Origin: Candidatus Iainarchaeum sp.
GTDB taxonomy: Archaea; Iainarchaeota; Iainarchaeia; Iainarchaeales; JAFCCW01
DNA length: 17,208 bases
Direction of reading: 5' to 3'
NCBI GenBank assembly: GCA_017609985.1
Contig: JAFCCW010000016.1
Span: forward strand, 1 to 17,208
The notes under the pieces are model-generated. The model had not been told where the DNA came from and made no database searches. It worked only from the letters and a program-made list of their open reading frames with translations. Positions 1 through 17,208 of the stretch are shown one piece after another (position 1 is the first letter of the stretch; each line of letters opens with the position of its first letter). The translations under genes were made by a program, and so were the position numbers.

Positions 1-43
1 CAAGCACTGCAATGCCGAAAACAGCGGCAATTATTTTTCGCAT
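1..43 (-). CDS. 5' end of a gene running off the window; probable secreted or membrane protein
   Basis: ATG at 43 on the minus strand reads MRKIIAAVFGIAVL: basic N-terminus then a hydrophobic run (signal-peptide-like). Divergent from the gene at 113 across a TTTTTAAAA box. Only 14 codons are visible. Confidence 0.55.
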   Translation of the reverse strand, partial: MRKIIAAVFGIAVL

Positions 44-67
44 AACAGTTGAATTTGAATCAAATAG

Positions 68-76
68 TTTTTAAAA
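68..76. promoter_or_regulatory. TATA-like box in divergent intergenic region
   Basis: TTTTTAAAA lies ~25 bp from the ATG at 43 (-) and ~36 bp from the ATG at 113 (+), and is readable on both strands. Confidence 0.5.
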
Positions 77-112
77 GGCCAGCATACAATGAATAATTAC
101 GGTTGAATAATC

Positions 113-1360
113 ATGATTGTTTGCGTTGTCGGTCTTGGCTATGTCGGGCTCCCCCTTACTGTTGAATTCGGCAAAAAGATGAAATGCATTGGCTTTGATG
201 AGTGTAAAGAACGCATTAAAGAGCTTGCAGATGGAAGGGACAAAAATGAAGAAGTGAGCCTTGAAGAGCTTGAAAAAAGCAGGGTTGAGTTCAGTTCAGA
301 AGCAGAAAGGATTGGAGAAGCAGACTTTGTGATTGTTGCCGTGCCAACACCAATTGATGAAGAAAAAAAACCAGATTTGAAAGCTCTTGAACAAGCTTCG
401 GTGACTGTGGCAAAAAACATGAAATCAGGTTGCATTGTGATTTATGAAAGCACGGTCTGGCCTGGTGTAACTGAGGAAATATGCGTGCCGATTCTTGAAA
501 AGGAATCAGGCAGGACTGCTGGAAAAGAATTCAAAGTTGCCTATTCTCCTGAAAGAGTTAATCCAGGAGAAAGAGAGCATTCTCTTGCAAATGTTGTCAA
601 GATTGTGTCAGGAATGGACAAAGAAACAACTGAAAAAGTAAGAGAACTTTATGAAACAATAATTGAAGCGGGAATATATATCGCGCCGGACATCAAAACA
701 GCCGAGGCGGCAAAAGCAATTGAGAATGTTCAGAGAGACCTGAACATTGCGCTGGTGAATGAACTTTCAAAAATATTTAACAGGAACGGACTTGACACCG
801 AACAGGTTCTTAAGGCAGCTGGAACCAAGTGGAATTTCCATTCATACCAGCCGGGTCTTGTCGGGGGACACTGCATTCCAGTAGATCCTTATTATCTGGT
901 TGAAAAAGCAAAGAAATTAGGTTATGAGCCAAAAGTAATTCTTGCAGGCAGGGAAATAAACAATTCAATGGCTGAATTTGTTGCAGAGCTTGCTGAAAAG
1001 GGGATTAAAGAAACAGGGAAAAATATTAATGGTGCAAGAATTGCAGTGCTTGGTTTAACATTCAAGGAAAATGTCGGAGACGATAGAAATTCAGGCGCAA
1101 AAAAGCTTTCAGAAATTTTAGGAAAAAAAGGAGCAGAGGTTTTTGAAATTGACCCGTTTCTCAAAATTGGAAATATTAAAAAGCTTGAAAGCATTGACTG
1201 CTTTGTTTTGGCTGTACCCCACAAAAAGTTTGGAAAAAAAGAAAAGCTTCTTGAAACCATGGCTGAAAAAGCACGAAAGAACCCTGTTCTAATTGATGTC
1301 AAATGGTTTTTGTCAAGGGAAGAAGCAGAAAAAGCAGGATTCAATTACAAGCGACTTTGA
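113..1360 (+). CDS. UDP-N-acetylhexosamine 6-dehydrogenase (WbpO/TviB-like nucleotide-sugar dehydrogenase)
   Basis: GLGYVG Rossmann motif, VPTP, ESTV, SPERVNPG, K..EN.QRDLNIA, GTKWNF, catalytic Cys in GGHCIPVDPYY, GLTFKEN. Overlaps the convergent gene by 16 bp. Confidence 0.9.
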   Translation: MIVCVVGLGYVGLPLTVEFGKKMKCIGFDECKERIKELADGRDKNEEVSLEELEKSRVEFSSEAERIGEADFVIVAVPTPIDEEKKPDLKALEQASVTVAKNMKSGCIVIYESTVWPGVTEEICVPILEKESGRTAGKEFKVAYSPERVNPGEREHSLANVVKIVSGMDKETTEKVRELYETIIEAGIYIAPDIKTAEAAKAIENVQRDLNIALVNELSKIFNRNGLDTEQVLKAAGTKWNFHSYQPGLVGGHCIPVDPYYLVEKAKKLGYEPKVILAGREINNSMAEFVAELAEKGIKETGKNINGARIAVLGLTFKENVGDDRNSGAKKLSEILGKKGAEVFEIDPFLKIGNIKKLESIDCFVLAVPHKKFGKKEKLLETMAEKARKNPVLIDVKWFLSREEAEKAGFNYKRL

Positions 1361-2277
1361 AAGTAATCAAGAGTTTTTGACAATCCATTCTCTAGCTCAA
1401 TTTTTGGTTCCCAGCCGAGCTCCTTTCTTGCTGTGGAAATATCCGGCTTTCTTCGCACAGGATCGTCAGGCATTGCATTGGAAAAAGAAATTTCAGACTC
1501 GCTTTTAGTCAGTTTTTTGACTAGTTCAGCCACTTCAAGGATTGTTTTTTCGTTTGGATTACCAAGATTGACAGGGTTTTGATATCCTGAAGCCATTAGC
1601 TTGTGAAAACCATTGACCAAATCACTTACATGACAGAAAGAGCGAGTCTGCTTTCCGTCTCCAAAAATTGTGAGAGGTTTGCCTTTAAGCGCACTTGAAA
1701 TAAATGCGGGAACCACTCGCCCATCATCAGGCCTCATTCTTGCCCCATAGGTATTGAAGATTCTTGCAATCCTTAGGTCAAGACCGTGCTTTTCCTTGTA
1801 GGCATAGCAGAGTGCTTCGGAAAAACGCTTTCCTTCATCATAGCAGGCTCTCGGACCAAAACAGTTTACGTTTCCTAAATATGATTCTTTTTGAGGATGC
1901 TCAAGCGGATTGCCATAGACTTCACTTGAAGATGCTTGAAGAAAGGAAGCATTTTTGTCAACTGCAAGATCTAGCGCGTTCTTGACTCCTACTGAGTTTA
2001 CTCCAAGAATTTCCACGGGAATTTCTAAAAAATCAAGGGGTGATGCGGGAGACGCAAGATTGAAAATCTGTTTCACGGAACAATCAATTTCAAATGGATC
2101 GACAAGGTCTTGTTTGATAAATTCAAAGTCTTTGTTTTCTTTAAGATGAGCAATGTTTTCTTTGTTTCCAGTAACAAGACTGTCAATTGCAATAACCTGT
2201 TCTCCTTTTGAAAGAAGGAGTTCACAAAGATGGCTTCCGAGAAATCCGGAACCACCAGTTACAACAATTTTTTTCAT
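1345..2277 (-). CDS. UDP-glucuronate decarboxylase (UDP-xylose synthase, UXS-like SDR)
   Basis: TGGSGFLGSHL, NLASPASP, ASSSEVYG, GPRACYDEGKR, RIFNTYG.RM..DGRVV, QTRSFC and DDP.RRKPDI are UXS-family hallmarks. Confidence 0.92.
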   Translation of the reverse strand: MKKIVVTGGSGFLGSHLCELLLSKGEQVIAIDSLVTGNKENIAHLKENKDFEFIKQDLVDPFEIDCSVKQIFNLASPASPLDFLEIPVEILGVNSVGVKNALDLAVDKNASFLQASSSEVYGNPLEHPQKESYLGNVNCFGPRACYDEGKRFSEALCYAYKEKHGLDLRIARIFNTYGARMRPDDGRVVPAFISSALKGKPLTIFGDGKQTRSFCHVSDLVNGFHKLMASGYQNPVNLGNPNEKTILEVAELVKKLTKSESEISFSNAMPDDPVRRKPDISTARKELGWEPKIELENGLSKTLDYFQSRL

Positions 2278-2301
2278 TCAATCACTTCTTAAAATCGCGT
2301 T

Positions 2302-3243
2302 CTATTTTCCAAAATCACACCTTAAAGATTCAAGTGTTTTTGATAACCCTTCCTTAAGACTTGTTTGTGGTTGCCAGCTTAAAAGCTTTTCTGAAAGGGA
2401 GATGTCTGCAATTGCATTGTCAACATCTCCTGTTCTTTTTTCAAAGTACTCGGGTTTGCCCTTTGTTCCAAAAAGTTCTTGCACTAAATTAAAAAGTGCG
2501 GTTACTGAAGTTGAATTTCCTGAACCAATGTTAATTGCAACACCGTTAAGGTTTGCCTTAGACTGCATTGCAGCAAAATTTGCTTCAGCAACATCACCGG
2601 CAAAAACAAAGTCTCTTGTCTGCTCTCCGTTGCCGTGAATAACTGCTTTCTTTCCGGCAAGTGCAGACAAGACAAATGCAGGGATTACAGAACCGTATCC
2701 TCCTGAGCAATCCTGCCTTGGACCATAGACATTAAAGTATCTGAGCGAGACACAGTCAAGACCTTGTTTAGAAAATTCTGTGCAAATCTGTTCTCCAGCA
2801 AGCTTTGTTTCAGCATAGGGAGAGGCGGGAATAAGAGGAGAAGACTCACAAAGCGGCTGTTTTTTTTGTTCCCCATAAACAGAACATGAAGAAGCAAAAA
2901 CAAATTTTTTTATGTTTTTTTCAGCACAGGCTTCAAGAAGAGTTCTTGTTCCCTCTAAATTCACTTTTAGATACTTGTTTTTCATTTCAAAAGACTCGGG
3001 AACAGACCTGAGAGCTGCGAGATGAAAAACAGTTGTCTGGTTATCAAGAAGTTTGATGAAAGAATCTTTTTCAAGAATGCTTGCTTCACAAAAATCAATG
3101 CTGTTAATTATTTTAGAAATGTTTTCAATTCTGCCAGTGGACAGATTATCTACAACAGAAACTTTTATTCTCTTTGAAACAAGTTTTTCACACAAATGGC
3201 TTCCGATAAAACCTGCGCCACCGGTGACAAGTGCCTTGTTCAT
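2302..3243 (-). CDS. NAD-dependent nucleotide-sugar 4-epimerase (WbpP/GalE-like extended SDR)
   Basis: TGGAGFIGSH, HLAA..SV..S, SS.SVYG, YxxxK (YAETK), RYFNVYGPRQD, G.GEQTRDF. The start directly abuts the upstream TAA, with an SD-like GGGTGG before it. Confidence 0.88.
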   Translation of the reverse strand: MNKALVTGGAGFIGSHLCEKLVSKRIKVSVVDNLSTGRIENISKIINSIDFCEASILEKDSFIKLLDNQTTVFHLAALRSVPESFEMKNKYLKVNLEGTRTLLEACAEKNIKKFVFASSCSVYGEQKKQPLCESSPLIPASPYAETKLAGEQICTEFSKQGLDCVSLRYFNVYGPRQDCSGGYGSVIPAFVLSALAGKKAVIHGNGEQTRDFVFAGDVAEANFAAMQSKANLNGVAINIGSGNSTSVTALFNLVQELFGTKGKPEYFEKRTGDVDNAIADISLSEKLLSWQPQTSLKEGLSKTLESLRCDFGK

Positions 3244-3981
3244 TTATCCACCCAGCTCTTTTCTTGCCTGTTCAAGCATTTCAAGACTTCCAATGTCAAA
3301 CCAAGGTTTCTTGAAACTGTAGCCAAAAACAGCTTCTCTCTTATAAAGCCATTCAAGAAAGTAACCCGGAGCATCAGGATTGTTTCCCTCTTCCAAGTAT
3401 TCATTGAAGAGTCGAACTACTCGTGCAGGATAAAAATAGATTCCAATTGAAGCAAGTGTGCTCTTGGGAGTCTGGGGTTTTTCCTGAAAGCCAAGAACCT
3501 TTTTTGAAGCAGGATCAAGTTCCACTATTCCAAATCGCTTTGCGTCTTCAATGCTTTGAACATTGTATGCTCCGATTATTGCTGACTTTTTTTGAAGAAA
3601 GTAATTGTGCATTCCTTGAAGAGAAAAGTTGAATAAATTGTCTCCACTAATGTCGAGCAGGGCGTCGTCAATCTTTTTTTCCCTGATTGCAAATGCTTTG
3701 TCGCCAATTGCTCCTAAACGGTCCTCATTTGAAGTTGTTTTGTCATTGATTACTTCAAGAGCAGGATTGCAATCGTAGGCAGAACACCATTCTTCAAAAT
3801 GAGTGTGAAATTTTTCATTGGTAACGATGTATATTTTTGAAACAGTTTCAAGCTCTTCAATTCTGTCAATTATGTGACCAAGAATTGCCTTGCCTCCAAC
3901 TTCGAGCAATGGCTTTGGCTTGTCTTTTGTAAGTGGATAGAGACGGGTTGCATAACCTGCTGCCATTATGATTGCGTCCAT
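3244..3981 (-). CDS. Sugar-1-phosphate nucleotidyltransferase (short NTP_transferase family)
   Basis: AAGYATRLYPLT..PKPLL, GDN, EKP, WFDIG. Start moved from 3990 to the ATG at 3981 because AAGGTG (SD-like) lies 6 nt upstream of it. Confidence 0.88.
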   Translation of the reverse strand: MDAIIMAAGYATRLYPLTKDKPKPLLEVGGKAILGHIIDRIEELETVSKIYIVTNEKFHTHFEEWCSAYDCNPALEVINDKTTSNEDRLGAIGDKAFAIREKKIDDALLDISGDNLFNFSLQGMHNYFLQKKSAIIGAYNVQSIEDAKRFGIVELDPASKKVLGFQEKPQTPKSTLASIGIYFYPARVVRLFNEYLEEGNNPDAPGYFLEWLYKREAVFGYSFKKPWFDIGSLEMLEQARKELGG

Positions 3982-4036
3982 AAAAAACACCTTAAGCAGT
4001 CAGTGCAGAAGCACTTAAAAACTGCATAAAAATTAT

Positions 4037-4157
4037 ATTCCCATTCCAATATAATTGAATCGCCTGTTCCGTCAGGCACTCTGCTGAGCACAAGCGGCAC
4101 TGTTTCCCCATCTGCGAGGGGGATTTATTCAGATTCCCATTCCAATATAATTGAATC
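4037..4157. repeat. Perfect 25-bp direct repeat (4037-4061 and 4133-4157) flanking a 71-bp GC-rich insert
   Basis: ATTCCCATTCCAATATAATTGAATC occurs twice with a period of 96 bp. The right copy is the last codons of ugd. Confidence 0.97.
4056..4131 (+). other. Candidate structured RNA or small inserted element
   Basis: Three 5-bp hairpins plus a closing TGAAT/ATTCA stem, found by eye. The insert is 41/71 G+C, well above the surrounding sequence. Function unknown. Confidence 0.4.
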
Positions 4158-5418
4158 CCTTTGAAATCATTTCATTTCTTGAAAACAGGTTTCTTCCGTC
4201 AATCACAAGAGGCTGCTTGAGTAGTTTTTTGACTTTTTCAAAGTCAAGATTTTTGAATTCATCCCACTCGGTCACGATAACAAGAGCGTCAGCATTCTTC
4301 ATTGTGTCGTATGGTGTTTTGCAGTATTCAATGTCAGGAAAAATTTTCTTGACATTTTCTGCTGCCTCTGGATCATATGCAGATATTTTTGCACCATCTT
4401 CAAGAAGCGAACCAATAATGTCCACTGCAGGAGCTTCCCTTATGTCGTCAGTGTTTGGCTTGAATGCTAATCCAAGAATCGCAATCTTTTTATCGCGCAC
4501 TACCCACAGAGCATCCTGAATTTTTCTAGTGAAAATTTTTCTCTGCTCCTTGTTTAAGCTTTGAACATCGTTGAGCAGTGAAAAATTGCATTTGTGTTTT
4601 TCTCCGATTTTTACAAAAGCCTCTACATCTTTTGGAAAACAGCTCCCGCCATAACCAATTCCTGCGTTAAGGAAGCTTTTTCCAACACGCTTGTCGAGAC
4701 CCATTCCCAATGCAACCTCGTTTATGTCTGCGTTAACAGCGTCACACAAGTTTGCAACCATGTTTATGAAAGAAATTTTTGTCGCAAGGAAAGAATTGCT
4801 TGCATGCTTTATTATTTCCGCGCTCTCAATTGTTGTTTCAATAATTGGAGCATTAAGCGGTTTGTAAAGTTCATTCATTTTTTCTAGAGCTTCTTTGCTG
4901 CTTGAACCAATTACGATTCTGTCCGGCTTCATAAAGTCTTCAAGCGCAGAACCCTCTCGCAAAAATTCAGGATTGCTTACAACATCAAACTCTATATTGT
5001 GAGGATTGTTCTGTCGCAGAGTTTCCCTTACTTTTTCCCCTGTTTCAACTGGAACTGTGCTTTTGTCAACTATGATTTTTTTTTCTTTTGCAGCAGCAGC
5101 AATCTGTCTGGCAACATTTTCAACATAAAAAAGATCGCAATCTCCACATTTGTTCGGCGGGGTTCCAACGCATATGAAAATTAGTTCAGAGCTGTTCACT
5201 GCAGCATCAAGATTTGTTGTAAAAGAAAGCCTTTCTTCTTTCATGTTCTTTTTGATGAGCTCCTCCAAACCAGGTTCGTAAATTGGGACTTTTCCCTCAT
5301 TAAGCATCTTAATCTTTTTTTCATCAATATCAACGCACACAACATTGTTTCCAAGGTCAGCAAAACAGCCTCCGGAAACCAAACCTACATAGCCTGAACC
5401 TATTACCGCAATATTCAT
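4129..5418 (-). CDS. ugd: UDP-glucose 6-dehydrogenase
   Basis: GSGYVG, VGTP, KSTVP, SNPEFLREG, K..SN.FLATKISFIN, catalytic GYGGSCFPKD, GLAFKPNTDD.RE, DGRN. Start set at ATG 5418 behind SD GGAGG (5426-5430). Confidence 0.95.
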   Translation of the reverse strand: MNIAVIGSGYVGLVSGGCFADLGNNVVCVDIDEKKIKMLNEGKVPIYEPGLEELIKKNMKEERLSFTTNLDAAVNSSELIFICVGTPPNKCGDCDLFYVENVARQIAAAAKEKKIIVDKSTVPVETGEKVRETLRQNNPHNIEFDVVSNPEFLREGSALEDFMKPDRIVIGSSSKEALEKMNELYKPLNAPIIETTIESAEIIKHASNSFLATKISFINMVANLCDAVNADINEVALGMGLDKRVGKSFLNAGIGYGGSCFPKDVEAFVKIGEKHKCNFSLLNDVQSLNKEQRKIFTRKIQDALWVVRDKKIAILGLAFKPNTDDIREAPAVDIIGSLLEDGAKISAYDPEAAENVKKIFPDIEYCKTPYDTMKNADALVIVTEWDEFKNLDFEKVKKLLKQPLVIDGRNLFSRNEMISKGFNYIGMGI

Positions 5419-5436
5419 TTCAAAACCTCCATATCC

Positions 5437-5460
5437 TATTTTCATATTTTCATATTTTTA
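5437..5460. repeat. 8-bp unit x3 tandem repeat upstream of ugd
   Basis: TATTTTCA TATTTTCA TATTTTTA, located between an AT-rich box and the SD. Confidence 0.8.
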
Positions 5461-5465
5461 AAGTT

Positions 5466-6332
5466 TTAAACATTGCTGTGCGAGCGAATAAATTTTTCAA
5501 TCAAGATTTTTTCTCTGATAATTTCTTCAGCGGAAACGTCAAGACCGTGCTCGAGGACAAGCGGAATTCTGTTAAGATAATCAATTTTTGAAAGCGTTTT
5601 TAGTGGAAAATCATTAGGAATTGGAGCGTGCTGATCTATTTTTTTGTCTGCTCCCTCCTTTTCTGAAAAGTGCAGGTGCATTTGCCTTACCTGTTGATGG
5701 AGTGAGAGAAGTTCGACAAGATTGTCTTCAAACAAGGCGTGTCCAAGGTCCAAAAGCAGACCAACTGATGGAAATTCAGTAAAAACTTCTCTGAAATCTT
5801 CAACTGAACCAACCAATGGCAGAACAGTGGATTTGCAAAGATTTTCTATTGAAAAATTTGTGCCAATATCTTCTGCTTTTTTGACACATTCTTCAAGAAC
5901 AATGAAAAGATTCTGCATTGCCTTCTGCCTTGGAATCAGGCCCTGTTTTTTTGGAAAAGACATTCCCTTCTTGCCTGTTGAAAAAGAAACCTTGTTTAGG
6001 AAACCAGGGTGAATGCTCACCATCTCTGCTTCTGCGATTTCAGCAGCTGCAAATAATCCTTCAACAACCTTTTTGTTCTGGCTGGTTAAACCCTCTGAAG
6101 GATTGAACCAGAATTTTTCCTTCAACGGAGGAAACAGCCCGTGAACAGTAAACTTCATTTCAGGAAAATCATTCTTGACTTTTTTAACAGTGTCAAGTGC
6201 ATCCTTTTCAAAGTCGTGGGCTGCTCCAAGTTCACAGAGTTCAAAACCAAGCTGCCTTACTGACTCGACCGATGAATAGATTGAACGCTTTTGAAAAGCA
6301 TAATAACTAGAGCTTAAACCCAGTAGAGCCAT
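5466..6332 (-). CDS. Sugar phosphate isomerase/epimerase-family TIM barrel (AP endonuclease 2 / xylose isomerase-like)
   Basis: Metal-ligand pattern H, HPG, IEN, LDLGHA, MHLH, DQH, LE. Start set at ATG 6332, ~26 bp after TTTAA (6358-6362), which suggests a leaderless transcript. Confidence 0.8.
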   Translation of the reverse strand: MALLGLSSSYYAFQKRSIYSSVESVRQLGFELCELGAAHDFEKDALDTVKKVKNDFPEMKFTVHGLFPPLKEKFWFNPSEGLTSQNKKVVEGLFAAAEIAEAEMVSIHPGFLNKVSFSTGKKGMSFPKKQGLIPRQKAMQNLFIVLEECVKKAEDIGTNFSIENLCKSTVLPLVGSVEDFREVFTEFPSVGLLLDLGHALFEDNLVELLSLHQQVRQMHLHFSEKEGADKKIDQHAPIPNDFPLKTLSKIDYLNRIPLVLEHGLDVSAEEIIREKILIEKFIRSHSNV

Positions 6333-6425
6333 AAATGAAACACATTGCAAAAGTAGTTAAAGGCTTTCAATTCCACGAACGTACTAAGAAGCTATTTAAA
6401 GGATAAAGCACTACAAATTAAAGTT
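6333..6425. promoter_or_regulatory. Divergent promoter region
   Basis: TTTAA on the minus strand at 6358-6362, and TTTAAA preceded by purine-rich AAGAAG on the plus strand at ~6395-6400. Each is ~25 bp from an ATG. Confidence 0.6.
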
Positions 6426-7364
6426 ATGAAAAATTATGAAGAATTGCCTAATGAGTCTGAAAGCGAGTGCGAGTCCTGCAGGATAGAATTTCCCCCAGAG
6501 CTCAAAGCAAGAGCAGAAGCTGCGTTAAGGAAGGAGCGAGTGACAGTTAATCTTGATGGTCAACTCCTTTTCGAGCTTGATGCGCTGGTTTCCGCAAACG
6601 AATTCAGGAACAGGTCGCATGCAATGGAGTCCCTGATTAAGAAAGGAATAGGTGAGAGTGAGCTTGAAACAGCATTTATCCTTGCAGGCGGAAAGGGAAG
6701 CAAGCTGAGACCATTGACTTATGAAGTGCCAAAGGCAATGATTCCAGTCAAGGGCAAGCCAGTGCTTGAATACCTTGTTCAGCTTTTGGAAAAGCACAAA
6801 GTCAAAAACATAGTAATTGGAACAGGCTATCTTCATGAAAAGATTGAAAATCATTTCGGAAACGGTGAGAAATTTGGAGTGAACATTGCTTACAGCAGAG
6901 AAAACAAAAAGCTTGGAACCGGAGGCGCATTAAGAAAAGCGCGCGGTTTGCTGGGTGGAGAGCACGTGCTTGTAAGCAACGGAGACGAATTGAAGGATGT
7001 GAACATCACTGAAATGCACAACGCACATGTCGAGTCAGGAGCAACAGCAACAATGGCATTGACTACGGCAGAAAACTCAGAGGATTTTGGAAATGTGCGA
7101 ATGGAAGGAAGCAGAGTTGTAGAATTTGTTGAAAAGCCAAAAAAAACAGAGCCAGGAATGCTGGTAAGCGCTGGCTTATACATAATGAATCGTTCTGTGC
7201 TTCAAAACATTCCCAAAAGCAAAGCAAGTCTTGAAAAGGACCTTTTTCCAAAGCTTGCTGAAACAGGAGAACTTTCAGGATTTGTTTTTGGAGGCCAGTT
7301 TTTGACAGCAGACACGCCTGAAAGATATGAAAAAGCAATTAAGCACTGGGGGGGAATTAAGTGA
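6426..7364 (+). CDS. Ribbon-helix-helix (NikR/CopG-like) domain fused to a sugar-phosphate nucleotidyltransferase domain
   Basis: aa ~36-75 KERVTVNLDGQLLFELDALV...RNRSHAMESLI fit the RHH pattern. From aa 82: ILAGGKGSKLRPLT..PK, LGTGGA, NGD, FVEKP. Confidence 0.88.
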   Translation: MKNYEELPNESESECESCRIEFPPELKARAEAALRKERVTVNLDGQLLFELDALVSANEFRNRSHAMESLIKKGIGESELETAFILAGGKGSKLRPLTYEVPKAMIPVKGKPVLEYLVQLLEKHKVKNIVIGTGYLHEKIENHFGNGEKFGVNIAYSRENKKLGTGGALRKARGLLGGEHVLVSNGDELKDVNITEMHNAHVESGATATMALTTAENSEDFGNVRMEGSRVVEFVEKPKKTEPGMLVSAGLYIMNRSVLQNIPKSKASLEKDLFPKLAETGELSGFVFGGQFLTADTPERYEKAIKHWGGIK

Positions 7365-8314
7365 GCAGGATAATGGTTTTAGGGGGAGCAGGATTTATTG
7401 GAAGCCACTGCACTGAAGAGCTTGTAAAGCAAGGGCACGAAGTTGTTGTTGTAGACAACCTGTTTCTTGGAAGAAAAGAAAATCTTGAAAGTGTAAAAGA
7501 CAAAATAGAATTTTGCAAAGAAGATTATTGCAATAAAGAATTTCTTGAAAAAAAAATCAGAGAACAGGGAACAGAGTATGTTTTCCATTTTGCTGGATTT
7601 TCTTCCGCGCCGATGTTTGACGGAAAAGAAGCAGAGGGAATTGAAAAAAACATTACTGGGTTTGCTCAGCTCAGTAGGCTGTGTGCTGACCATGGAGTAA
7701 AGCGGGTGCTTTATGCAAGCAGTTCAAGCATTTATGGTGATTTAAAAAAGCAGGTTGAAGATGCAAAGGTTTTCCCTCCGAATTTTTATGCAATGACAAA
7801 GTATGCAATGGAGCACACTGCAAGGCTTTTCTGGCAGGAGCAGGGTCTTGAAAGCATTGGTTTCAGGTTTTTTTCTGTTTATGGCAAGAATGAAAAGCAC
7901 AAGGGCAGGTTTGCAAATCTCGTCTCCCAGTTTCTCTGGGCTTTGCAGGAAGGAAATGAAATGATTATTTACGGAGACGGAGAGCAAACACGCGACTTCA
8001 CTTATGTTCTTGACATTGTTAAGGCAATGATTTTGGGAATGAAAGCAGAGGAAGAAAAAGCAAAGGCAAACATCTACAATGTTGGAACAGAAAAAAGTTA
8101 TTCCCTCAATGAGCTGTGCAACGTGCTTGAGAGAGAAACCGGATTGAAGGGAAGAAGAAAGTACATTGAAAATCCGCTTAAAAATTACGTTGAACACACA
8201 AAAGCAGACACTTCAAAGATTAAAAGAGAATTAGGTTTTGAAGCAGAATATGATTTGAGCAACGGGGTTAGTGAGATACTTTCAGACAGCAAGAAAAAAA
8301 CTAGGAGGTTTTAG
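7361..8314 (+). CDS. NAD-dependent epimerase/dehydratase (extended SDR, HldD-like ExHKG motif)
   Basis: GGAGFIG, ASSSSIYG, YAMTK, RFFSVYG..EKHKG, GDGEQTRDF. The GTG start overlaps the upstream TGA (GTGA). Confidence 0.85.
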   Translation: MSRIMVLGGAGFIGSHCTEELVKQGHEVVVVDNLFLGRKENLESVKDKIEFCKEDYCNKEFLEKKIREQGTEYVFHFAGFSSAPMFDGKEAEGIEKNITGFAQLSRLCADHGVKRVLYASSSSIYGDLKKQVEDAKVFPPNFYAMTKYAMEHTARLFWQEQGLESIGFRFFSVYGKNEKHKGRFANLVSQFLWALQEGNEMIIYGDGEQTRDFTYVLDIVKAMILGMKAEEEKAKANIYNVGTEKSYSLNELCNVLERETGLKGRRKYIENPLKNYVEHTKADTSKIKRELGFEAEYDLSNGVSEILSDSKKKTRRF

Positions 8315-8318
8315 GAAA

Positions 8319-9440
8319 ATGCCTGAAGAAAAAACAACAACAATTTCTGTGATAAAGGCTGACGTGGGCAGTTTGCCAGGGCACGTAATTGTGCCAGACT
8401 GCATGCTGGAAATACTGGAAGAGCATTTGAGAAAAGAAATGAAGGAAAGCAAGTTGTTGAACGACTACTATGTTTTCAACTGTGGAGATGATATCGAGCT
8501 TGTGCTGAGCCACAACCGGGGAGAGGATGATGAAAAAATCCACGAGCTTGCCTGGAACGGTTTTATGGATGCAGCAGAGCACGCGCGCAAGAACAAGTTT
8601 TATGGAGCAGGACAGGACCTGCTTGCAGACAGCTTTTCAGGAAATGTAAAGGGACAAGGGCCCGGAGTTGCAGAAATGGAGTTTGTTGAAAGAAAGTCAG
8701 ACCCCTTGCTTGTGTTTGCATGCGACAAGACAGACCCGGCAGCATTCAACCTGCCGTTGTTCAAGGCTTTTGCAGACCCGTTCAATACCGCCGGGCTAGT
8801 GATTGACCCAAGCACTACTGCTGGCTTTGAATTTGAGATAGTGGATGTTTACGACAGCAAAAAGGTTAGAATGAGCTGTCCAGAGGAAATGTATTCAATG
8901 CTTGCTCTGCTTGGAACAACCTCTAGATACGCAGTGAAAAGAATCTGGAAAAAAGGAGAGGAAAGCGAGAAAGAGAGAGTTGCCTGTTCTGTTTGCACTG
9001 AAAAGCTGAATGTTTCAGCAGGAAAGTATGTGGGAAAGGACGACCCAGTGGCAATCTGCAGAGCCCAGTCTGGAATGCCTGCTGTTGGAGAAATCCTTGA
9101 AGGGTTTACTACTGCGCATCTTGTAAGCGGGTGGATGAGGGGAAGCCACAAAGGTCCTTTGATGCCTGTTGCAAGAGCAGATGCTTCGCCAACCAGATTT
9201 GATGGGCCTCCGCGCGTGGTTGGAAAAGGTTTTCAGGTAAGTCATGGAAAACTGCACGGTCCAAGGGACTTGTTTGCTGACGTAAGTTTTGACCACACAA
9301 GAAAACAGTGCATGGAAATAGCACACTATATGCGCCAGCACGGGCCATTTGAACCGCACCGTGTGAGCGAAAAAGAGCTAGAGTATACTACGATGCCGCA
9401 GGTAATGGATGCATTAAAGGAAAGATTTGAGGATATATAG
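8319..9440 (+). CDS. fbp: Bifunctional fructose-1,6-bisphosphate aldolase/phosphatase (class V FBPase)
   Basis: KADVG..GH, GDD, YGAGQDLL..FSGN, DKT, FNTAGLVID, YVGKDDP (aldolase Tyr/Lys), GWMRGSH, FDGPP, RQHGPFEP, EYT. Start set at ATG 8319 behind AGGAGGT (8303-8309). Confidence 0.96.
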   Translation: MPEEKTTTISVIKADVGSLPGHVIVPDCMLEILEEHLRKEMKESKLLNDYYVFNCGDDIELVLSHNRGEDDEKIHELAWNGFMDAAEHARKNKFYGAGQDLLADSFSGNVKGQGPGVAEMEFVERKSDPLLVFACDKTDPAAFNLPLFKAFADPFNTAGLVIDPSTTAGFEFEIVDVYDSKKVRMSCPEEMYSMLALLGTTSRYAVKRIWKKGEESEKERVACSVCTEKLNVSAGKYVGKDDPVAICRAQSGMPAVGEILEGFTTAHLVSGWMRGSHKGPLMPVARADASPTRFDGPPRVVGKGFQVSHGKLHGPRDLFADVSFDHTRKQCMEIAHYMRQHGPFEPHRVSEKELEYTTMPQVMDALKERFEDI

Positions 9441-9455
9441 GCACAGGTGAATGAA

Positions 9456-10196
9456 TTGATTGCTATTGTGATGGCTGGGGGTTTTGCAAAAAGGCTCTGG
9501 CCACTCACAAAAAACAAGGCAAAACCGCTGTTAGATGTTAATGGGGAAAAAATAATTGAGTTTGTGCTGGAAAAAATTGAAGAAGTTGAAGAGATTGACA
9601 GAGTAATAATAACCACTAATGAAAAATTCGGAAAGCAGTTTGAAGAATTTCTTTCAGGCTACAAAGGAAAAAAGAAAGCAGAACTTTTTGTTGAGCCTGG
9701 GTTGAAGAATGAGCAAAAACTGGGTGCTTTGGGCGGGCTTGCTTATTTGATTGAAGAAAAAGAAATTAATGAAGACTTTCTTGTGATTGGAGGCGACAAT
9801 ATCTTTGAATTTGATTTGAATGAATTGATTGAATTGTTCAATGAAAAGGAAAAGAAAAGATTTTGTTTTGCTGTTTATGATATTAAAAGTCTTGAAGAAG
9901 CAAAAAAATTTGGGGTTGTGGAAGTTGATGAAGAAGGAAAAGTCACAAGCTTTGTTGAAAAACCTGAAAATCCAGAAAGCACGCTGATTAGCACCTGCTG
10001 TTATTTGTTTCCAAAAAAGTCAATTAGAATGCTGAAAGAGTATTTGAAGGGCAACAATCCAGACGCTCTTGGATTCTTTGTCGGATGGCTTCGGGCAAGG
10101 GAAGAAATCTATGCAATGCCGTTCTCAGAAAAATGGTTTGACATCGGAAGCTTTGAACAGCTGGAATCTGCGAGAAAGTATTTTGGGAAAAGTTAA
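9456..10196 (+). CDS. Sugar-1-phosphate nucleotidyltransferase (short NTP_transferase family)
   Basis: AGGFAKRLWPLT..AKPLL, GDN, EKP, WFDIG. TTG 9456 is preferred over GTG 9447 because AGGTGA (9445-9450) looks like the SD and the N-terminus then aligns with the paralog at 3981. Start uncertain. Confidence 0.85.
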   Translation: MIAIVMAGGFAKRLWPLTKNKAKPLLDVNGEKIIEFVLEKIEEVEEIDRVIITTNEKFGKQFEEFLSGYKGKKKAELFVEPGLKNEQKLGALGGLAYLIEEKEINEDFLVIGGDNIFEFDLNELIELFNEKEKKRFCFAVYDIKSLEEAKKFGVVEVDEEGKVTSFVEKPENPESTLISTCCYLFPKKSIRMLKEYLKGNNPDALGFFVGWLRAREEIYAMPFSEKWFDIGSFEQLESARKYFGKS

Positions 10197-10221
10197 TTAA
10201 CTGGTTAAGCTTCTTTCTTTC

Positions 10222-10755
10222 ATGGCTTCAAAGGAAATTGAAGAAAAGCTTTTTTCAGCTGAAGAAATTGGGAAGCGGGTGAAAGAGCTTGGAAAAGAAA
10301 TTGCAGAAGCTTACTCTGGCGTGAAAAAAATTACTCTTCTCGTAGTGCTCAAGGGAGCCTTCATGTTTTCAGCTGATTTGGTGAGGGCAGTGCATTCCGC
10401 GGGCGGGCCAGAGGCAGAAGTAGAGTTTGTAAAGGCATCCTCTTACGGAAATGAAACCAGTTCTTCCGGGAATGTGAATGTAGAGTTAAAACCTGACTTG
10501 AAAGGAAAGCACGTGCTGATAGTGGAGGACATCGTGGATTCAGGAAGGACTCTTAAAAAAATGAAGGAAATTGTTGCAGAAGAAGCAGAGAGTGTAAAGA
10601 TTGTTGCCTTGCTGGACAAAAAAGAGAGAAGAGAAGTTGAAATTGACGCTGATTTTGTTGGATTTGAAATTCCAAACAAGTTTGTGGTGGGCTATGGAAT
10701 AGACTATGCTCAAAAATTCAGAGACCTGCCGTATATTGCCGTAGTGAAAGAATAG
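10222..10755 (+). CDS. hpt: Hypoxanthine(-guanine) phosphoribosyltransferase, bacterial-like
   Basis: VLKGA..F.ADL, SSYG, PRPP-binding VLIVEDIVDSGRT, LLDK, FVVGYGIDY...RDLP. Confidence 0.95.
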   Translation: MASKEIEEKLFSAEEIGKRVKELGKEIAEAYSGVKKITLLVVLKGAFMFSADLVRAVHSAGGPEAEVEFVKASSYGNETSSSGNVNVELKPDLKGKHVLIVEDIVDSGRTLKKMKEIVAEEAESVKIVALLDKKERREVEIDADFVGFEIPNKFVVGYGIDYAQKFRDLPYIAVVKE

Positions 10756-10771
10756 AACTTTTCCAAAAATA

Positions 10772-10787
10772 TTTTCAAGCTTGAAAA
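10772..10787. repeat. 16-bp perfect palindrome between convergent genes
   Basis: TTTTCAAGCTTGAAAA in the 45-bp gap between hpt and the deaminase. Confidence 0.75.
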
Positions 10788-10800
10788 CTGTTTCCAATCT

Positions 10801-12054
10801 TTAAGTTTGAAAAATGTCTTCAACTGCTTTATTGAATTTTTCAATTGTTTTTTCTTCGCCCTCGACTTTCCTGTCTTCCATCAGCAGTTCTCCGTTGACA
10901 ATTGAGTGCGTGACAACAGAGCCGTTAGCAGAATAGACAATGTTTGAGTCAAGAGAATGCAGGGGAATTTTTGAAAGCTCTTTCAGGTCAACAAGGATTA
11001 AGTCTGCAAGCTTGCCCTCTTCCACCCTGCCAGCATTGAAGCCCAGGGATTCTGCTCCAGCACTGGTAGCCATTTGGATTGCTTCCCTCGCAGGCAGGAC
11101 AGTTGGATTATTGGAAGAAAACTTCTGAAGAAGTGAGGCAAACTTCATTTCTTCAAACATGTCAAGATTGTTGTTGGAGGAACAGCCGTCAGTTCCAAGA
11201 GAACAGGTTATTTCCTTGGAGCGAAGCATAGAGTAAGGAAACGTGCCTCCTACTGCAAGCTTCATGTTGCTTGTCGGACAGTGAACTGCTTTGCAGCCAG
11301 ATTTGCCAAGCAATCCTGCTTCTTTTTTGTTCAGGTGCACACAGTGGGCAAAAACCTTGTTGTCAGAAAGAAAACCAATGTTTTGCAGGTATTCAGCCGG
11401 GCGGGAGCCATGGTCTTTAACGCAGTCCTTGACTTCTTGGTCTGTTTCAGACAAGTGCATGTGTACCAAAAGATTTTGTTCTTCTGAAAAAGAGTTTATC
11501 CATTCAAGCTGTTCTTTGGTTACAGTATAGATTGCATGTGGCCCAAGAGATGGCTTAAGAGTTTCACACTCGTATTCGCGGAGTGCAGAGAGATTCTTTT
11601 TTGTTTCGCGCCTGCAATCTTCAACAGACTTGTTTGTGCCGATTATTACTGCGTTTAGAACAGACCTCAGACCTGACTTGGAAGTAGCTTTTGCGTTTGC
11701 TTCCGGATGCCAGTACATGTCAAGAAAGCAGGTTGTGCCAGACTTAATCATTTCAAGGCAGGCAAAGGCTGTTCCAGATTCAATATGCTTTGGCTTCAGC
11801 TTTGCTTCTGTTGGCCAGATTTTTTCTTCAAGCCATTGATTAAGAGGCAGGTCGTCAGCGTAACCGCGAAGCAGAGACATTGCAGCATGGGTGTGCATGT
11901 TCACCAGACCGGGAAGAACTGCTTTTCCCCGCGCATCAATCACTTTGTCTGCTTTGTTGCCTGCTTTTTCACTGATTTCTGCTATATTATTATCATTAAT
12001 ATATATATTGGTGGATTTTCCGTCAAAATAGACATCTTTGATGAGAATGCTCAT
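10801..12054 (-). CDS. mtaD: 5'-methylthioadenosine/S-adenosylhomocysteine (5'-deoxyadenosine) deaminase, amidohydrolase family
   Basis: PGLVNMHTH, LLRGYADD, WL...IWP.E, GPHAIYT, HMHLSET, AHCV, HCP.SNMKL, LGTDG.SSNN. Start set at ATG 12054 (MSILIK). Confidence 0.85.
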   Translation of the reverse strand: MSILIKDVYFDGKSTNIYINDNNIAEISEKAGNKADKVIDARGKAVLPGLVNMHTHAAMSLLRGYADDLPLNQWLEEKIWPTEAKLKPKHIESGTAFACLEMIKSGTTCFLDMYWHPEANAKATSKSGLRSVLNAVIIGTNKSVEDCRRETKKNLSALREYECETLKPSLGPHAIYTVTKEQLEWINSFSEEQNLLVHMHLSETDQEVKDCVKDHGSRPAEYLQNIGFLSDNKVFAHCVHLNKKEAGLLGKSGCKAVHCPTSNMKLAVGGTFPYSMLRSKEITCSLGTDGCSSNNNLDMFEEMKFASLLQKFSSNNPTVLPAREAIQMATSAGAESLGFNAGRVEEGKLADLILVDLKELSKIPLHSLDSNIVYSANGSVVTHSIVNGELLMEDRKVEGEEKTIEKFNKAVEDIFQT

Positions 12055-12080
12055 TGCATTTCCTCTCACTGCATTTCCTC
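12051..12080 (-). repeat. 15-bp tandem duplication of the phosphorylase gene end
   Basis: Minus strand reads GAGGAAATGCAGTGA GAGGAAATGCAATGA (1 mismatch). Both copies encode EEMQ-stop. Confidence 0.9.
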
Positions 12081-12758
12081 CAATGATGCGAGAACAAGCT
12101 TTTTGACTTTTTCAGCGTTTGCATTTTTTGCCTTTACTATTGCCTTGTTTGAAAGCTCTTCTTCAGCAAGACCGTGAGCGTAATTGTCAATTGAGCAGAC
12201 ACAGCTATAATCAAGCCCTGCTTCAGAGCAGAGTGTGGCTTCACTTGAAGCAGTCATTCCCACAATGTCGGCAAACTGGGACAACAGTCTGACCTCTGCC
12301 TTTGTTTCCAGGCGAGGGCCGGGAGTCTGAACATAAACTCCTTTTTTGATTGGAATGCCAAGCGATGAAGCTGTTTTCAGGATTGCATTGCCTGTTTTCG
12401 CTCCCATCAAAGGAACATCGTGAACTATCTTTTTGTCAAAAAAGGTTATTGGGGAAAACAAGCCAATAAAGTCTGTCACAAGAGCTAAATCACCTGGTTT
12501 GATTGCCTTATTGAGACTGCCTGTGGAGCAGACTCCAATGACGTGAGAACAGCCAGCTTTTTTTAGAGCAGAAATGTTTGCCTTGTGGTTAATCTTGTGT
12601 GGGGGAATTGCCGGGGGAGAGCCGTGCCTTGCGATGAAGCAGATGTTTCCATCAGAAAAAATTTCTGCGTCTCCAAACTCTGTTTTAACAGTTTCTTTCT
12701 TCAATGATTTGAAGAGAGGAACTTCAAAGAAAAGGCTTCCACAAATTACTCCAATCAT
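12066..12758 (-). CDS. MTAP-family purine nucleoside phosphorylase (probably 6-oxopurine / methylthioinosine type)
   Basis: RHG....PPHKIN..ANI.AL, GSL, GPRLET.AE, VGMT..SE, DNYA. True start is ATG 12758; the ORF-track extension to 13298 is antisense to grpE. Confidence 0.88.
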   Translation of the reverse strand: MIGVICGSLFFEVPLFKSLKKETVKTEFGDAEIFSDGNICFIARHGSPPAIPPHKINHKANISALKKAGCSHVIGVCSTGSLNKAIKPGDLALVTDFIGLFSPITFFDKKIVHDVPLMGAKTGNAILKTASSLGIPIKKGVYVQTPGPRLETKAEVRLLSQFADIVGMTASSEATLCSEAGLDYSCVCSIDNYAHGLAEEELSNKAIVKAKNANAEKVKKLVLASLEEMQ

Positions 12759-12912
12759 AAAATAAGTTAGGGTTGAAGGCAATAAAAGGTTTTCTGAAAA
12801 GGAAATATATAACTTAGAAATAAAAAAAGAAAAAGATAGGAAAAGCAATAAAAACTTTTTGTTCAATAAATTATGCAAATGTCTAAATAGTTTAGTCGCA
12901 ATGTGTTTGGTT

Positions 12913-13425
12913 ATGCCTGAAAAAAAACAACCCAACAAAGAGGAAAAAAACTCCTTAAAACCTGAAAAAGAAGAATCTGAAGAACTGAATAACTTAAAGG
13001 ACAGCATGCAACGTTTGCAGGCAGAGTTTGAAAACAGCAGAAAAAGACTGGAAAGGGAAAAACAGGAATTTGCCTTATTCGCAAACACAGAACTCATAAA
13101 AAAGCTGTTGCCATTGCTTGACAGCATTGAAGCAGCAAAAGAACATTTTGAAAAACAGGAAAATTTTTCGGGAAAAGATTGCGCAAACGGGCTTGAACTA
13201 ATTAAGAAACAATTGTTGGAAATTTTAATTTCAGAGGGATTAAAAAGAACAAAAGCAGTCGGAAAAAAATTTGACCCGCTTCTGCACGATGCAGTCACAG
13301 AAGACTGTGAAGAAGAAAAAGAGAATGAAATCGTGCTTGAAGAATTTCAAAAAGGTTATACTCTAAAAGAAAAACTCTTGAGACCTGCAAAAGTGAAGAT
13401 AAACAAATCAAAGAAAAGTTTATGA
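12913..13425 (+). CDS. grpE: Nucleotide exchange factor GrpE
   Basis: RLQAEFEN.RKR, LLPLLD, FDP..HDAV, QKGY.L...LLRPAKV. Sits upstream of dnaK. The start could alternatively be 12901. Confidence 0.94.
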   Translation: MPEKKQPNKEEKNSLKPEKEESEELNNLKDSMQRLQAEFENSRKRLEREKQEFALFANTELIKKLLPLLDSIEAAKEHFEKQENFSGKDCANGLELIKKQLLEILISEGLKRTKAVGKKFDPLLHDAVTEDCEEEKENEIVLEEFQKGYTLKEKLLRPAKVKINKSKKSL

Positions 13426-13468
13426 AAAAAAGTTTACGAAAATTTGAAAAAAATAGGAGGAATTCAGA

Positions 13469-15343
13469 ATGAGTAAAGTTATCGGAATTGATTTGGGAAC
13501 ATCAAATTCAGCTGCTTCTTTTCTTGAAGCAGGAAAACCAAGAATTGTTTCAAGCGCAGAAGGTGCAAGCATTTATGGCAAAGCTTTTCCAAGCTATGTA
13601 GCGTTTACAAAAGACAACCAGGTTCTTGTGGGCGAACCTGCTAAAAGGCAGGCTGTGAGCAACGCTGAAAACACATTCACTGCATTCAAGAGAAAAATGG
13701 GAACTGATTTCAAGTATACTGCAAACGGAAAAGAATATACTCCACAGCAGTTAAGTGCGTTTATCTTGCAAAAAATAAAAAAGGACGCAGAAGAATTTTT
13801 AGGAGAAAAAGTAGAAAAAGCAGTTATAACCGTGCCTGCTTACTTTGACGACAACCAAAGACAGGCAACAAAGGATGCTGGAAAAATAGCTGGATTGGAA
13901 GTAATTAGAATAATCAACGAACCCACTGCTGCTTCTCTTGCATACGGGCTTGACAAAAAAGAAAAAGAGCAAAAAATACTCGTGTTTGATTTTGGCGGCG
14001 GAACTCTTGATGTGACAATAATGGAGTTTGGAGACGGAGTCTTTGAAGTTAAGTCAACAAGCGGAGATACCCAGCTTGGCGGAACAGACATGGACAACGT
14101 GCTTGTTGACTTTGTTGTGTCAGAATTCAAGAAAGAGCAGGCAGTGGACCTGACAAAGGATAACAGGGCAATGCAAAGAATAAAAGAAGCTGTGGAAAAA
14201 GCAAAAATAGAGCTCTCAACAGTCTTGGAAACAGACATTAATCTGCCTTATGTGACAGCAGACGAATCAGGACCAAAGCATCTTGCAATGAAGATAAAAA
14301 GAGCAAAGCTTGAACAACTAGTTGAACCCACAATAAAGAGATGCGAAAAACCAGTGCAACAGGCTTTGGCAGATGCAAACTTACAGCCATCTGACATAAA
14401 AAGAATAATAATGGTTGGTGGCCCTACAAGGATGCCAGTACTGCAAAAATTTGTTGAAGATTTAATCGGTTCAAAGCTTGAAAGAGGTGTTGACCCGATG
14501 GAGTGTGTTGCAATGGGTGCAGCAATACAGGGCGGAGTATTAAGTGGAGAAGTAAACGATGTGCTGCTTCTTGATGTTACACCACTTACTCTTGGAATTG
14601 AAACACTTGGCGGAATCAGAACACCATTAATTGCAAGAAACACGACTATTCCAACAAAGAAAAGCCAGGTTTTTTCAACTGCATCAGACAATCAGCCAGC
14701 GGTTGACATTCATGTATTGCAGGGAGAGAGAGAAATGGCTAAAGACAACAAGACACTGGGCAGATTCCAGCTTGTTGGAATTCCACCGTCTCCAAGAGGA
14801 GTACCACAGATAGAAGTAAGCTTTGACATTGATGCAAACGGAATAGTGAACGTAAAAGCAAAGGATTTGGGAACAGGGAAAGAACAAGGAATAGAGATTG
14901 TTGCCTCACAAAAACTGAACGAGGAAGAAATTGAAAAAATGAAGCTGGAAGCAGAACAGCACGCAGCAGATGACAAGAAAAGAAAAGAAGAAATTGAAAT
15001 AGTAAATCAGGCAGACGCTCTGACTTACAGCGCTGAAAAAATAGCTGAAGAAATGAAAGGCAAGGTTGATGATGCAAAAATTGAGTCTGTAAAAAACAAA
15101 AACAATGAACTAAAAGCGCTTCTTGAAAAAGAACCAAAAGATACAGGCGCAATAAAAGCAAAATTTGACGAGCTGAACAAGGAAATGCAGGAGATTGGCA
15201 CAGAAATTTATCAAAAAGCACAACAGACAAAGAAACAGGAAACAACAAATAAAGAACAGAAACAAACAGAAGATGAAAAAAAAGAAGACAAGGTTGTTGA
15301 CGCAGACTATGAAGTAAAAGATGAGAAAAAGAAAGAAGAGTAA
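13469..15343 (+). CDS. dnaK: Chaperone DnaK (Hsp70)
   Basis: [56 protein letters not shown] tail. SD AGGAGG. Lacks the N-terminal insert of Gram-negative DnaK (archaeal/Gram-positive type). Confidence 0.98.
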
Positions 15344-15378
15344 CTCTTCTTTTCCTTAACTTCTTTTTTATTTTTTTT
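15332..15378 (+). terminator. Putative terminator after dnaK
   Basis: AAAGAAGAG-TAA-CTCTTCTTT inverted repeat around the stop codon, followed by long oligo-T tracts. Confidence 0.6.
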
Positions 15379-15423
15379 GTCTCTTTAAAGATTGGCAGAG
15401 ATTTGTATATTTGACTGATTTGC

Positions 15424-16563: not shown

Positions 16564-16593
16564 ATTGCAGTTACATAAAACAGCAAAAAACAA

Positions 16594-17091: not shown

Positions 17092-17208
17092 TCAAGAAGA
17101 AAAGAAGTTACATCTCTTTAAAAAGATTTTTGTGAAGAGATTAATATAGCTAAAAAAATTGCAGAATTGCCTTTAAACGGCCTAGAAGAAAACGGGGGAA
17201 GGGAGCAC

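Follow-up and report, generated by a model that had tools for sequence, protein, structure and literature searches.

A gene fusion and its family

We analyzed a 17,208-nt stretch of the archaeon Candidatus Iainarchaeum sp. (contig JAFCCW010000016.1, positions 1 to 17,208, hereafter the window), in which an open reading frame at 6426-7364 on the plus strand (312 residues plus stop) encodes a sugar-1-phosphate nucleotidyltransferase (NTase) with a ribbon-helix-helix (RHH) domain at its N-terminus. A first-pass annotation, made from the letters alone, had proposed that this protein is a sugar-nucleotide-sensing transcription factor whose enzyme domain has degenerated. We find that genes of this fused family carry a conserved repeat at their own promoters whose half-site is identical to that of Escherichia coli NikR, and that the case for a degenerate enzyme is only partial. 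As the annotation had stated, the gene heads an operon-like, tight same-strand run (6426-10755) at a divergent promoter, facing across 75 bp a divergent gene that ends at 6350.

The N-terminal domain is of the NikR type, as judged from profile matches and a predicted structure. NCBIfam NikR models match residues 37-81 (E 3.7e-6 and 6.8e-6) and the CdrS model matches at 5e-4, while Pfam RHH_1 stays below threshold on the N-terminal piece alone (E 0.004-0.012, 16-17 bits vs. a cut-off of 20.5). A profile of 23 RHH domains of the family matched NikR of E. coli (1q5v/2hzv; E 1.7e-6) and of Pyrococcus (E 0.012) as well as CopG (E 0.015). In the profile alignment, the RHH-NTase consensus for the strand coincides letter for letter with RVTITLD of E. 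coli NikR; the corresponding strand of the window protein is RVTVNLD (residues 38-44), with NRSHA at residues 62-66. An AlphaFold2 monomer (mean predicted local distance difference test score 87.2) shows an extended segment at 38-44 followed by helices spanning 45-54 and 63-74. Blocks over residues 41-70 average 82-87 in this score, and a linker of lower confidence (residues 71-80) precedes the enzyme domain. The model assigns no strand, as expected of one that pairs only in the dimer, where two such strands form the DNA-reading ribbon of RHH proteins; a monomer is uninformative on dimerization. Residues R38, D52, R63, S64, H65, and E68 are invariant in a 30-sequence alignment. The RHH assignment of the first-pass annotation, for which it had suggested a hidden Markov model search and structure prediction, is therefore borne out by both: the strand, the two helices, and the matches to RHH models that characterize the superfamily are all present. 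The NikR models nonetheless cover only about their first 45 positions on the fusion protein, whose C-terminus is PF00483, and the protein is not itself a NikR because the ACT-like nickel-binding domain is absent. A search of the window's genome found no second NikR-type RHH; the only other RHH candidate there is a 63-residue protein (G000:C23:23486-23677; L128:187-378) with the strand KVTIAIP and without the R-x-T-x-T/NRSH signature, which may be CdrS-like.

The RHH-NTase fusion is a conserved, widespread, and uncharacterized family of DPANN archaea with one clade in Patescibacteria. The 119 homologues listed are all ~263-313 residues long, 44-52% identical to the window protein, and cover its residues ~35-312; they are named only as nucleoside diphosphate (NDP)-sugar pyrophosphorylases or nucleotidyltransferases, with a precomputed RHH_1 match in 5/120. 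A profile running from the RHH through the glycine loop retrieved 240 representatives (50% identity clusters, many of them fragments) at E <= 1e-10 among 1.84 billion proteins. Among the 80 best loci from species-level genomes, 19 carry the fusion, and 82/201 sampled genomes of the window's phylum have matches at E <= 1e-40, fused or unfused. The family spans Woese-, Aenigmat-, Alti-, Parv-, and Nanoarchaeota as well as Patescibacteria, and unfused orthologues (44-51% identical) occur in the same archaeal order. Bacterial-type genomes hold the fusion in L008, L013, L015, L018, and L020, plus L010 from a mixed bin. The assignment to bacteria stands: sigma-70 genes are present in 5/5 bacterial-type genomes and TFIIB in 1/5, a mixed bin; in three bacterial genomes the contig number of sigma-70 is consistent with that of the fusion, according to an inferred mapping. 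Five bacterial rows (L008, L010, L013, L015, and L018) form a single clade (support 95/96) among archaeal rows, which suggests one interdomain transfer. We rejected apparent fusions in two Actinomycetota loci (L035 from residue 10, L037 from residue 35) as read-through of upstream frames. The fused gene at L020:5001-5837 contains one in-frame TGA after ...HQSHGH, which may mark a pseudogene or a recoded stop or be a sequencing error. In the literature searched we found no description of an RHH-NTase fusion; the passages of PMC6393860 consulted are silent on it, and the supplementary tables of that paper could list the cluster.

Table 1. Coordinates of the fusion gene, its domains and motifs, the candidate control elements, and the downstream genes in the window
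Feature	Position	Strand	Basis or remark
TATA-box-like element (TATTTAAA)	6393..6400	+	26-33 nt before ATG; promoter function inferred
Candidate operator TTATGA-AAAA-TTATGA	6424..6439	+	Direct repeat, 10-bp period; first half-site holds ATG 6426
RHH-nucleotidyltransferase fusion gene	6426..7364	+	Open reading frame, Pfam, NCBIfam, homologues
N-terminal extension, 35 residues	6426..6530	+	Holds C-E-S-C; alignment; model of low-to-moderate confidence, helix at residues 24-34
NikR-type RHH domain (residues 36-75)	6531..6650	+	Strand KERVTVNLD, helix 1 at 45-54, N-R-S-H-A cap, helix 2 at 63-74
Sugar-1-phosphate nucleotidyltransferase domain (residues 83-312)	6672..7361	+	Pfam PF00483, E 7.6e-41
Glycine-rich loop GGKGSKLRP (residues 88-96)	6687..6713	+	K93 where 127/139 family members carry Arg
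FLTADT (residues 292-297)	7299..7316	+	Aligned with the orthologue-group motif W[FL][PT]TDT; F292 in place of a 97%-conserved Trp
Rest of putative operon	7361..10755	+	Gaps/overlaps of -4, -44 (nominal), 6, and 25 nt; cotranscription inferred
NAD-dependent epimerase/dehydratase	7361-8314	+	Putative operon member
Class V fructose-1,6-bisphosphatase	8271-9440	+	Start probably later than called
Stand-alone nucleotidyltransferase	9447-10196	+	Putative operon member
Phosphoribosyltransferase	10222-10755	+	Putative operon member

A repeat at the promoters of fused genes

Upstream regions of fused genes carry a direct repeat, TCAYAC-N4-TCAYAC, with a 10-bp period. Exact copies occur in 10/19 fused and 0/61 unfused loci among the 80 loci; nine of them precede the fused gene, and the remaining one, in L001, precedes a second fused paralogue. 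Two further arrangements of this half-site come from genomes of the window's own phylum, which were added after this repeat had been defined. Group A, the closest fused relatives of the window gene, carries TCATAA-N3-WTATGA-N4-DTATGA downstream of the TATA box and ahead of the start (7/8 loci match the N3 pattern, and L083 is degenerate with TCAAAA), and group B, a set of fused paralogues described below, has TCATAY-N3-GTATGA-N4-GTATGA. In both groups the ATG itself often falls inside the last half-site. Inverted-N3 and direct-N4 pairs, that is, half-sites 9-10 bp apart, occur within -90..+20 of the start in 32/45 fused genes (4,877 nt searched). Proteins of the RHH superfamily bind short repeated half-sites spaced by about one helical turn. 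The same patterns have only 5 matches in the remaining 249,483 nt of the fused loci, and the 81 unfused loci (653,004 nt) also contain 5. Another three fused genes have such a pair no more than 260 nt away.

The half-site of this repeat, GTATGA/TCATAC, is identical to that of E. coli NikR, whose operator is given as GTATGA-N16-TCATAC in passages of two papers (PMC7055735; PMC545781). This identity was recognized only after the motif had been found in the loci and serves as an external check. Placement of the sites fits repression: in archaeal loci they abut or follow the TATA box, with A/T-rich boxes at the same distance as in the window, and bacterial sites overlap a TTGACA-N16-TATGAT-type promoter, with a -10-like TATGAT inside the first half-site. 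In five related genomes (1.2-1.3 Mb) the palindromic form occurs only 0-2 times each, and 3/5 sites lie directly upstream of a fused gene. This rarity, and the position of most copies at fused genes, argue for autoregulation rather than a large regulon.

The window's best match to the family repeat lies at 6424-6439, with the same substitution in both halves, which otherwise agree with the NikR half-site GTATGA and differ only at its first base. This site (TTATGAAAAATTATGA) overlaps the ATG, and an identical 16-mer is found at -12 in the relative L083; the window thus shares the 16-mer of L083 with a shift of 10 nt relative to the start codon, from which the 35-residue extension of the window protein may stem through a change of start or frame. 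Because a TATA-like box precedes the ATG by 26-33 nt, the transcript is probably leaderless or nearly so and the candidate operator would cover the likely transcription start. The sequence KTATGANNNNKTATGA has its sole exact match in the 1.16-Mb genome at 6424-6439.

Several observations weigh against an operator role, for the family or for the window site. No paired site lies within 260 nt in 10/45 fused genes, and the enrichment figures overstate independence because the patterns were defined on the sequences counted and many loci are close kin (8 group A loci stem from one family and 15 group B loci from five). Each window half-site begins with T and not G, the inverted third half-site of group A is missing from the window, and half of the site is coding sequence. 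Base composition leads us to expect roughly one chance exact match in each genome. When up to one mismatch is allowed, the direct pattern has 8 sites in the window's genome vs. 19 for the reversed control. It is therefore the position of the window site that gives it significance, since about one chance match is expected and near-matches are not enriched. A regulon beyond the gene's own start cannot be claimed in this genome, where the inverted pattern has 14 matches vs. 40 for the control and no exact inverted site.

We also considered a suggestive covariation between residue 42 of the reading strand and the first base of the half-site, which we do not count as evidence because it rests on one or two evolutionary events: T42 clades mostly have GTATGA, and N42 proteins (the window and group A) have TTATGA, ATATGA, or TCATAA, with the exception that the third group A site is GTATGA in 3/8 loci.

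For the first-pass annotation's proposal of a local regulator, the conserved operator-like repeat at the gene's own start provides strong new support at the level of sequence. The binding regions it had put forward fared poorly. Half-sites are absent from 44-112 and 3982-4032, a single one lies in 5419-5465, and the paired site at 6424-6439 falls just outside the fourth region, 6333-6425.

The enzyme domain, its paralogues, and its gene context

The enzyme domain is a well-supported NTP_transferase (Pfam, residues 83-285, E 7.6e-41; 140.7 bits vs. a cut-off of 21.2). Its best NCBIfam match is mannose-1-phosphate guanylyltransferase (E 1.1e-49, 169 bits vs. 440), and no equivalog cut-off is reached; the best PDB relatives of the fusion protein are 8x7s, 7whr, 8yre, 7x8j, and 7d72_K. 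The first-pass annotation had called this domain degenerate at two motifs, GKGSKL (residues 89-94) in place of the GxGTRL loop and FLTADT (residues 292-297) in place of WxDxG. It had also noted that PK (residues 102-103), NGD (185-187), and EKP (236-238) persist, and that both stand-alone paralogues in the window keep the Arg and WFDIG. These latter statements hold: the paralogue at 3244-3990 (minus strand) reads AAGYATRLYPLT and PWFDIGS, that at 9447-10196 (plus strand) reads AGGFAKRLWPLT and KWFDIGS, and the fusion protein retains P102-K103, G186-D187, E236-K237-P238, and LGTGG.

Degeneracy at the two motifs holds only in part. The loop GGKGSKLRPLT has Lys at the Arg place of the canonical G-x-G-T-R-L-x-P-L-T, a position (93) at which 127/139 family members keep Arg, 5 have Lys, 6 Asn, and 1 Gln. 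In the second motif, T294 aligns with the Asp of 7whr and the Asp of the window protein is D296. The Asp of WxD is a metal ligand in RmlA-type enzymes. Its displacement is shared, however: W[FL][PT]TDT, with Asp at +2, is found in 16/16 unfused orthologues whose loop is the canonical GGKGxRLRPLT, as well as in 8/8 closest fused relatives, and family-wide 27/138 aligned sequences have no Asp in that column, 20 of which carry Asp at +2. The apparent loss of this Asp is therefore not degeneration, since it is typical of the lineage including unfused enzymes with canonical motifs, and the degenerate-enzyme reading is further limited by the conservative nature of the R-to-K and T-to-S changes and by the intact PK, GD, and EKP.

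What remains unusual are R93K and W292F. The latter is found in no other family member, at a position where Trp is 97% conserved. The window protein also deviates at 12/68 positions that are at least 90% conserved (median 1), making it the 5th most divergent of 139, and its terminal branch is 0.75 vs. a median of 0.22, in a tree that does not strongly support its placement. Together these features count against an intact enzyme, and catalysis could be reduced or lost. The window's genome (1.16 Mb, 86.6% complete) encodes four other NTases at 27-32% identity; the same search found no other member of the fusion's orthologue group and no group B paralogue there. The NTase in the same putative operon is only 27% identical to that of the fusion and belongs to a different subfamily. 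Judging from the residues kept and lost, we lean slightly toward a window copy that still catalyzes, perhaps in altered form.

Group B is a second RHH-NTase paralogue present in many relatives (L111-L126, e.g., L113:639-1451) at 33-38% identity. Although PK, GT, GD, (E/Q)KP, NAGY, and EKDLFP persist in it, the glycine loop has been deleted or scrambled. It is monophyletic on a long stem (support 100/100, length 0.93) and shares a contig with the catalytic orthologue in 14/16 genomes, lying within 5 kb of it in 13. Loss of the loop indicates that the NTase fold became a noncatalytic module on the same DNA-reading head at least once, and from its sequence group B looks like a dedicated noncatalytic regulator. 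The sensor idea of the first-pass annotation is thus realized in group B, a paralogue that was not found in the window's genome. For the window copy itself, that idea gains from its divergence and from the example of group B and loses from its intact catalytic residues. A general rule pairing a degenerate loop with an adjacent canonical NTase was tried and rejected: group B follows it, and in the G-x-G-[VIL]-[NK] group only 2/8 loci have such an NTase within three genes.

The genes around the fusion place it in hexose-phosphate supply and activation. A phosphogluco/phosphomannomutase lies directly downstream in 6/19 loci, and epimerase/dehydratases follow the fusion in the window, L001, and L021. 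A GlpX-type fructose-1,6-bisphosphatase adjoins it in L003:3781-4764, L006:3742-4764, and L015:5825-6814, and in the window a class V enzyme (FBPase_3) lies two genes downstream, so that the same linkage recurs via two unrelated enzymes of one reaction. Sugar kinases flank the Aenigmatarchaeota and bacterial fusion loci.

Further features of these neighborhoods were observed in passing. In three Aenigmatarchaeota-type loci (L005, L007, and L009) a fusion with the loop G-x-G-V-N/K stands beside a GHMP kinase, which in L007 bears a fused SIS domain and precedes a HAD-NTase fusion. Farther downstream are DUF2797 and a metallo-beta-lactamase-fold protein, and the setting looks like a heptose-nucleotide-like pathway. 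In the window the bisphosphatase gene, with its nominal GTG start at 8271, reaches 44 nt into the gene before it, and its true start is probably later. Close to the fusion, the window (10222-13298) and its closest relative, L001 (L001:6817-8130), each have a phosphoribosyltransferase and a PNP_UDP_1 phosphorylase; the window also has an amidohydrolase there, and its phosphorylase bears an N-terminal extension of ~180 residues. This set looks like a nucleotide-salvage module beside sugar-nucleotide genes.

A candidate self-regulating enzyme and its counterparts

We consider it reasonably likely, on the strength of these sequence comparisons, that the fusion is a one-component, self-regulating transcription factor whose NTase domain senses the sugar-nucleotide state and probably still catalyzes. 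RHH dimers would occupy both TTATGA half-sites of the 6424-6439 repeat, which lie on one face of the DNA at a spacing of one helical turn. Binding there, on the transcription and translation start, would block initiation of the putative operon 6426-10755, which comprises the fusion, the epimerase/dehydratase, the fructose-1,6-bisphosphatase, the second NTase, and the phosphoribosyltransferase; control would then act by repression rather than activation. The NTase domains would hold the RHH dimers together, and a substrate or product (nucleoside triphosphate [NTP], hexose-1-phosphate, or NDP-hexose) would set operator occupancy, such that the supply of activated sugar feeds back on its own synthesis. 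The NDP-hexose product as corepressor would be the simplest logic. If catalytic, the protein would be a trigger enzyme like trifunctional PutA and not a pure sensor, a class that its architecture and the position of the candidate operator appear to fit.

An alternative is that the NTase of the window copy is noncatalytic and binds NDP-sugar, NTP, or sugar-1-phosphate solely to control the RHH domain, leaving the stand-alone NTases as the real enzymes. This we regard as unlikely, although it draws on the replacement of the conserved Arg and Trp by K93 and F292, on the 12/68 changed positions and long terminal branch, on the canonical NTase in the same putative operon, and on group B, which is clearly noncatalytic and linked to a catalytic orthologue. 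GMPPA offers a precedent, since according to PMC11228364 it binds GDP-mannose and regulates GMPPB. Against it stand the conservative R-to-K and T-to-S changes, the intact K103, D187, E236-K237-P238, and LGTGG, and the presence of the same "missing" Asp pattern in active-looking orthologues. The in-operon NTase belongs to another subfamily, and lost activity would remove this enzyme from the genome because no other member of its orthologue group was found in the 86.6% complete assembly.

It is very improbable that the RHH domain is a structural or oligomerization module or binds something other than DNA, the repeats then being promoter architecture or the site of another factor. Such a reading would account for the RHH_1 score below threshold on the window sequence, for the AT-rich and partly coding half-sites of the window, and for the bacterial overlap with the -10-like TATGAT, where conservation could be partly that of the promoter. 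It leaves unexplained that conservation within the N-terminus is highest in the base-contacting strand R-x-T-x-T/N and the NRSH cap, that the repeats track the fusion (0/61 unfused loci with the exact repeat; 5 matches of the paired patterns in 653 kb), that E. coli NikR, with its homologous RHH, binds this very half-site, and that no other NikR-type RHH was found in the window's genome. We give next to no weight to an ordinary enzyme with a mis-called start or a chance N-terminal resemblance: the 35-residue extension (6426-6530) is missing from nearly all homologues, TTG 6444 is the sole in-frame alternative start upstream of the RHH, and a GTG at V39 is preceded by AAGGAG, but R38, which is invariant, would be lost with a start at V39, over 100 homologues have their first residue immediately ahead of this KER-V/I-T strand, and the TATA-like box lies 26-33 nt ahead of ATG 6426. 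The NikR-model and family-profile matches, the homologues, and the alignment already contradict this reading.

Several known systems resemble the self-regulating enzyme that we favor. NikR (E. coli; PDB 1q5v, 2hzv) shares with the fusion a homologous N-terminal RHH, the half-site GTATGA/TCATAC, and the plan of an RHH followed by a C-terminal ligand-binding oligomerization domain. It differs in that this domain is an ACT-like nickel-binding domain and not a ~230-residue nucleotidyltransferase fold, in that its half-sites are inverted with N16 rather than 9-10 bp apart center to center (inverted N3, direct N4), and in that its ligand is a metal, whereas the presumed ligand of the fusion is a nucleotide or sugar and the presumed target its own sugar-nucleotide operon. 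PutA, like the fusion, carries an N-terminal RHH on an enzyme, of unrelated fold and pathway. PutA switches by membrane association on flavin reduction, a switch not expected in the fusion. Trifunctional PutA (RHH, proline dehydrogenase, and pyrroline-5-carboxylate dehydrogenase) is an autogenous repressor of its own operon (PMC5293562) and would be the best functional analogue if the NTase is active.

For the sensor reading and for group B the best analogue is GMPPA, a noncatalytic paralogue that binds product and regulates supply according to PMC11228364. GMPPA and GMPPB (PDB 7d72) have the NTase fold of the fusion (7d72_A, E 4.9e-12; catalytic GMPPB 7d72_K, E 1e-27); unlike the fusion, GMPPA is eukaryotic, acts by protein-protein contact with the enzyme, and has neither DNA binding nor an RHH. 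The unfused NTases of the GDP-mannose/UDP-glucose pyrophosphorylase type (PF00483; 8x7s, 7whr, 7x8j) have the homologous domain (E 1.5e-32 to 3.9e-29) without a DNA-binding domain, and GTATGA-type repeats were not seen in their loci. In NadR and BirA a nucleotide-transfer enzyme also represses the pathway to which it belongs, the product or intermediate serving as corepressor; these use a helix-turn-helix rather than an RHH, act in other pathways, and have catalytic folds unrelated to that of the fusion.

DPANN archaea and Patescibacteria rely on cell-surface glycans for host contact. To our knowledge their tiny genomes encode few recognizable transcription factors, and almost no regulation has been characterized in them. 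What is predicted here is a regulator together with the operator it reads, the operon it controls, and a small set of candidate ligands, in a family found in a large share of these organisms, a role invisible to annotation because databases name the proteins only as NDP-sugar pyrophosphorylases. As a tentative extension, RHH-NTases may be cross-domain sugar-nucleotide-responsive regulators, combining a NikR head, a GTATGA half-site, and an NTase sensor, that would chiefly govern, at the local level, how glycan precursors are supplied in DPANN archaea and Patescibacteria; a path would then lead from an active trigger enzyme with canonical motifs to the noncatalytic group B sensor, with the fast-evolving window copy (R93K, W292F, and N42 with TTATGA) caught in transition. 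If the prediction is true, the nucleotidyltransferase fold would join the known sensor domains of RHH regulators, and the family would be a natural series for how an enzyme becomes a ligand sensor.

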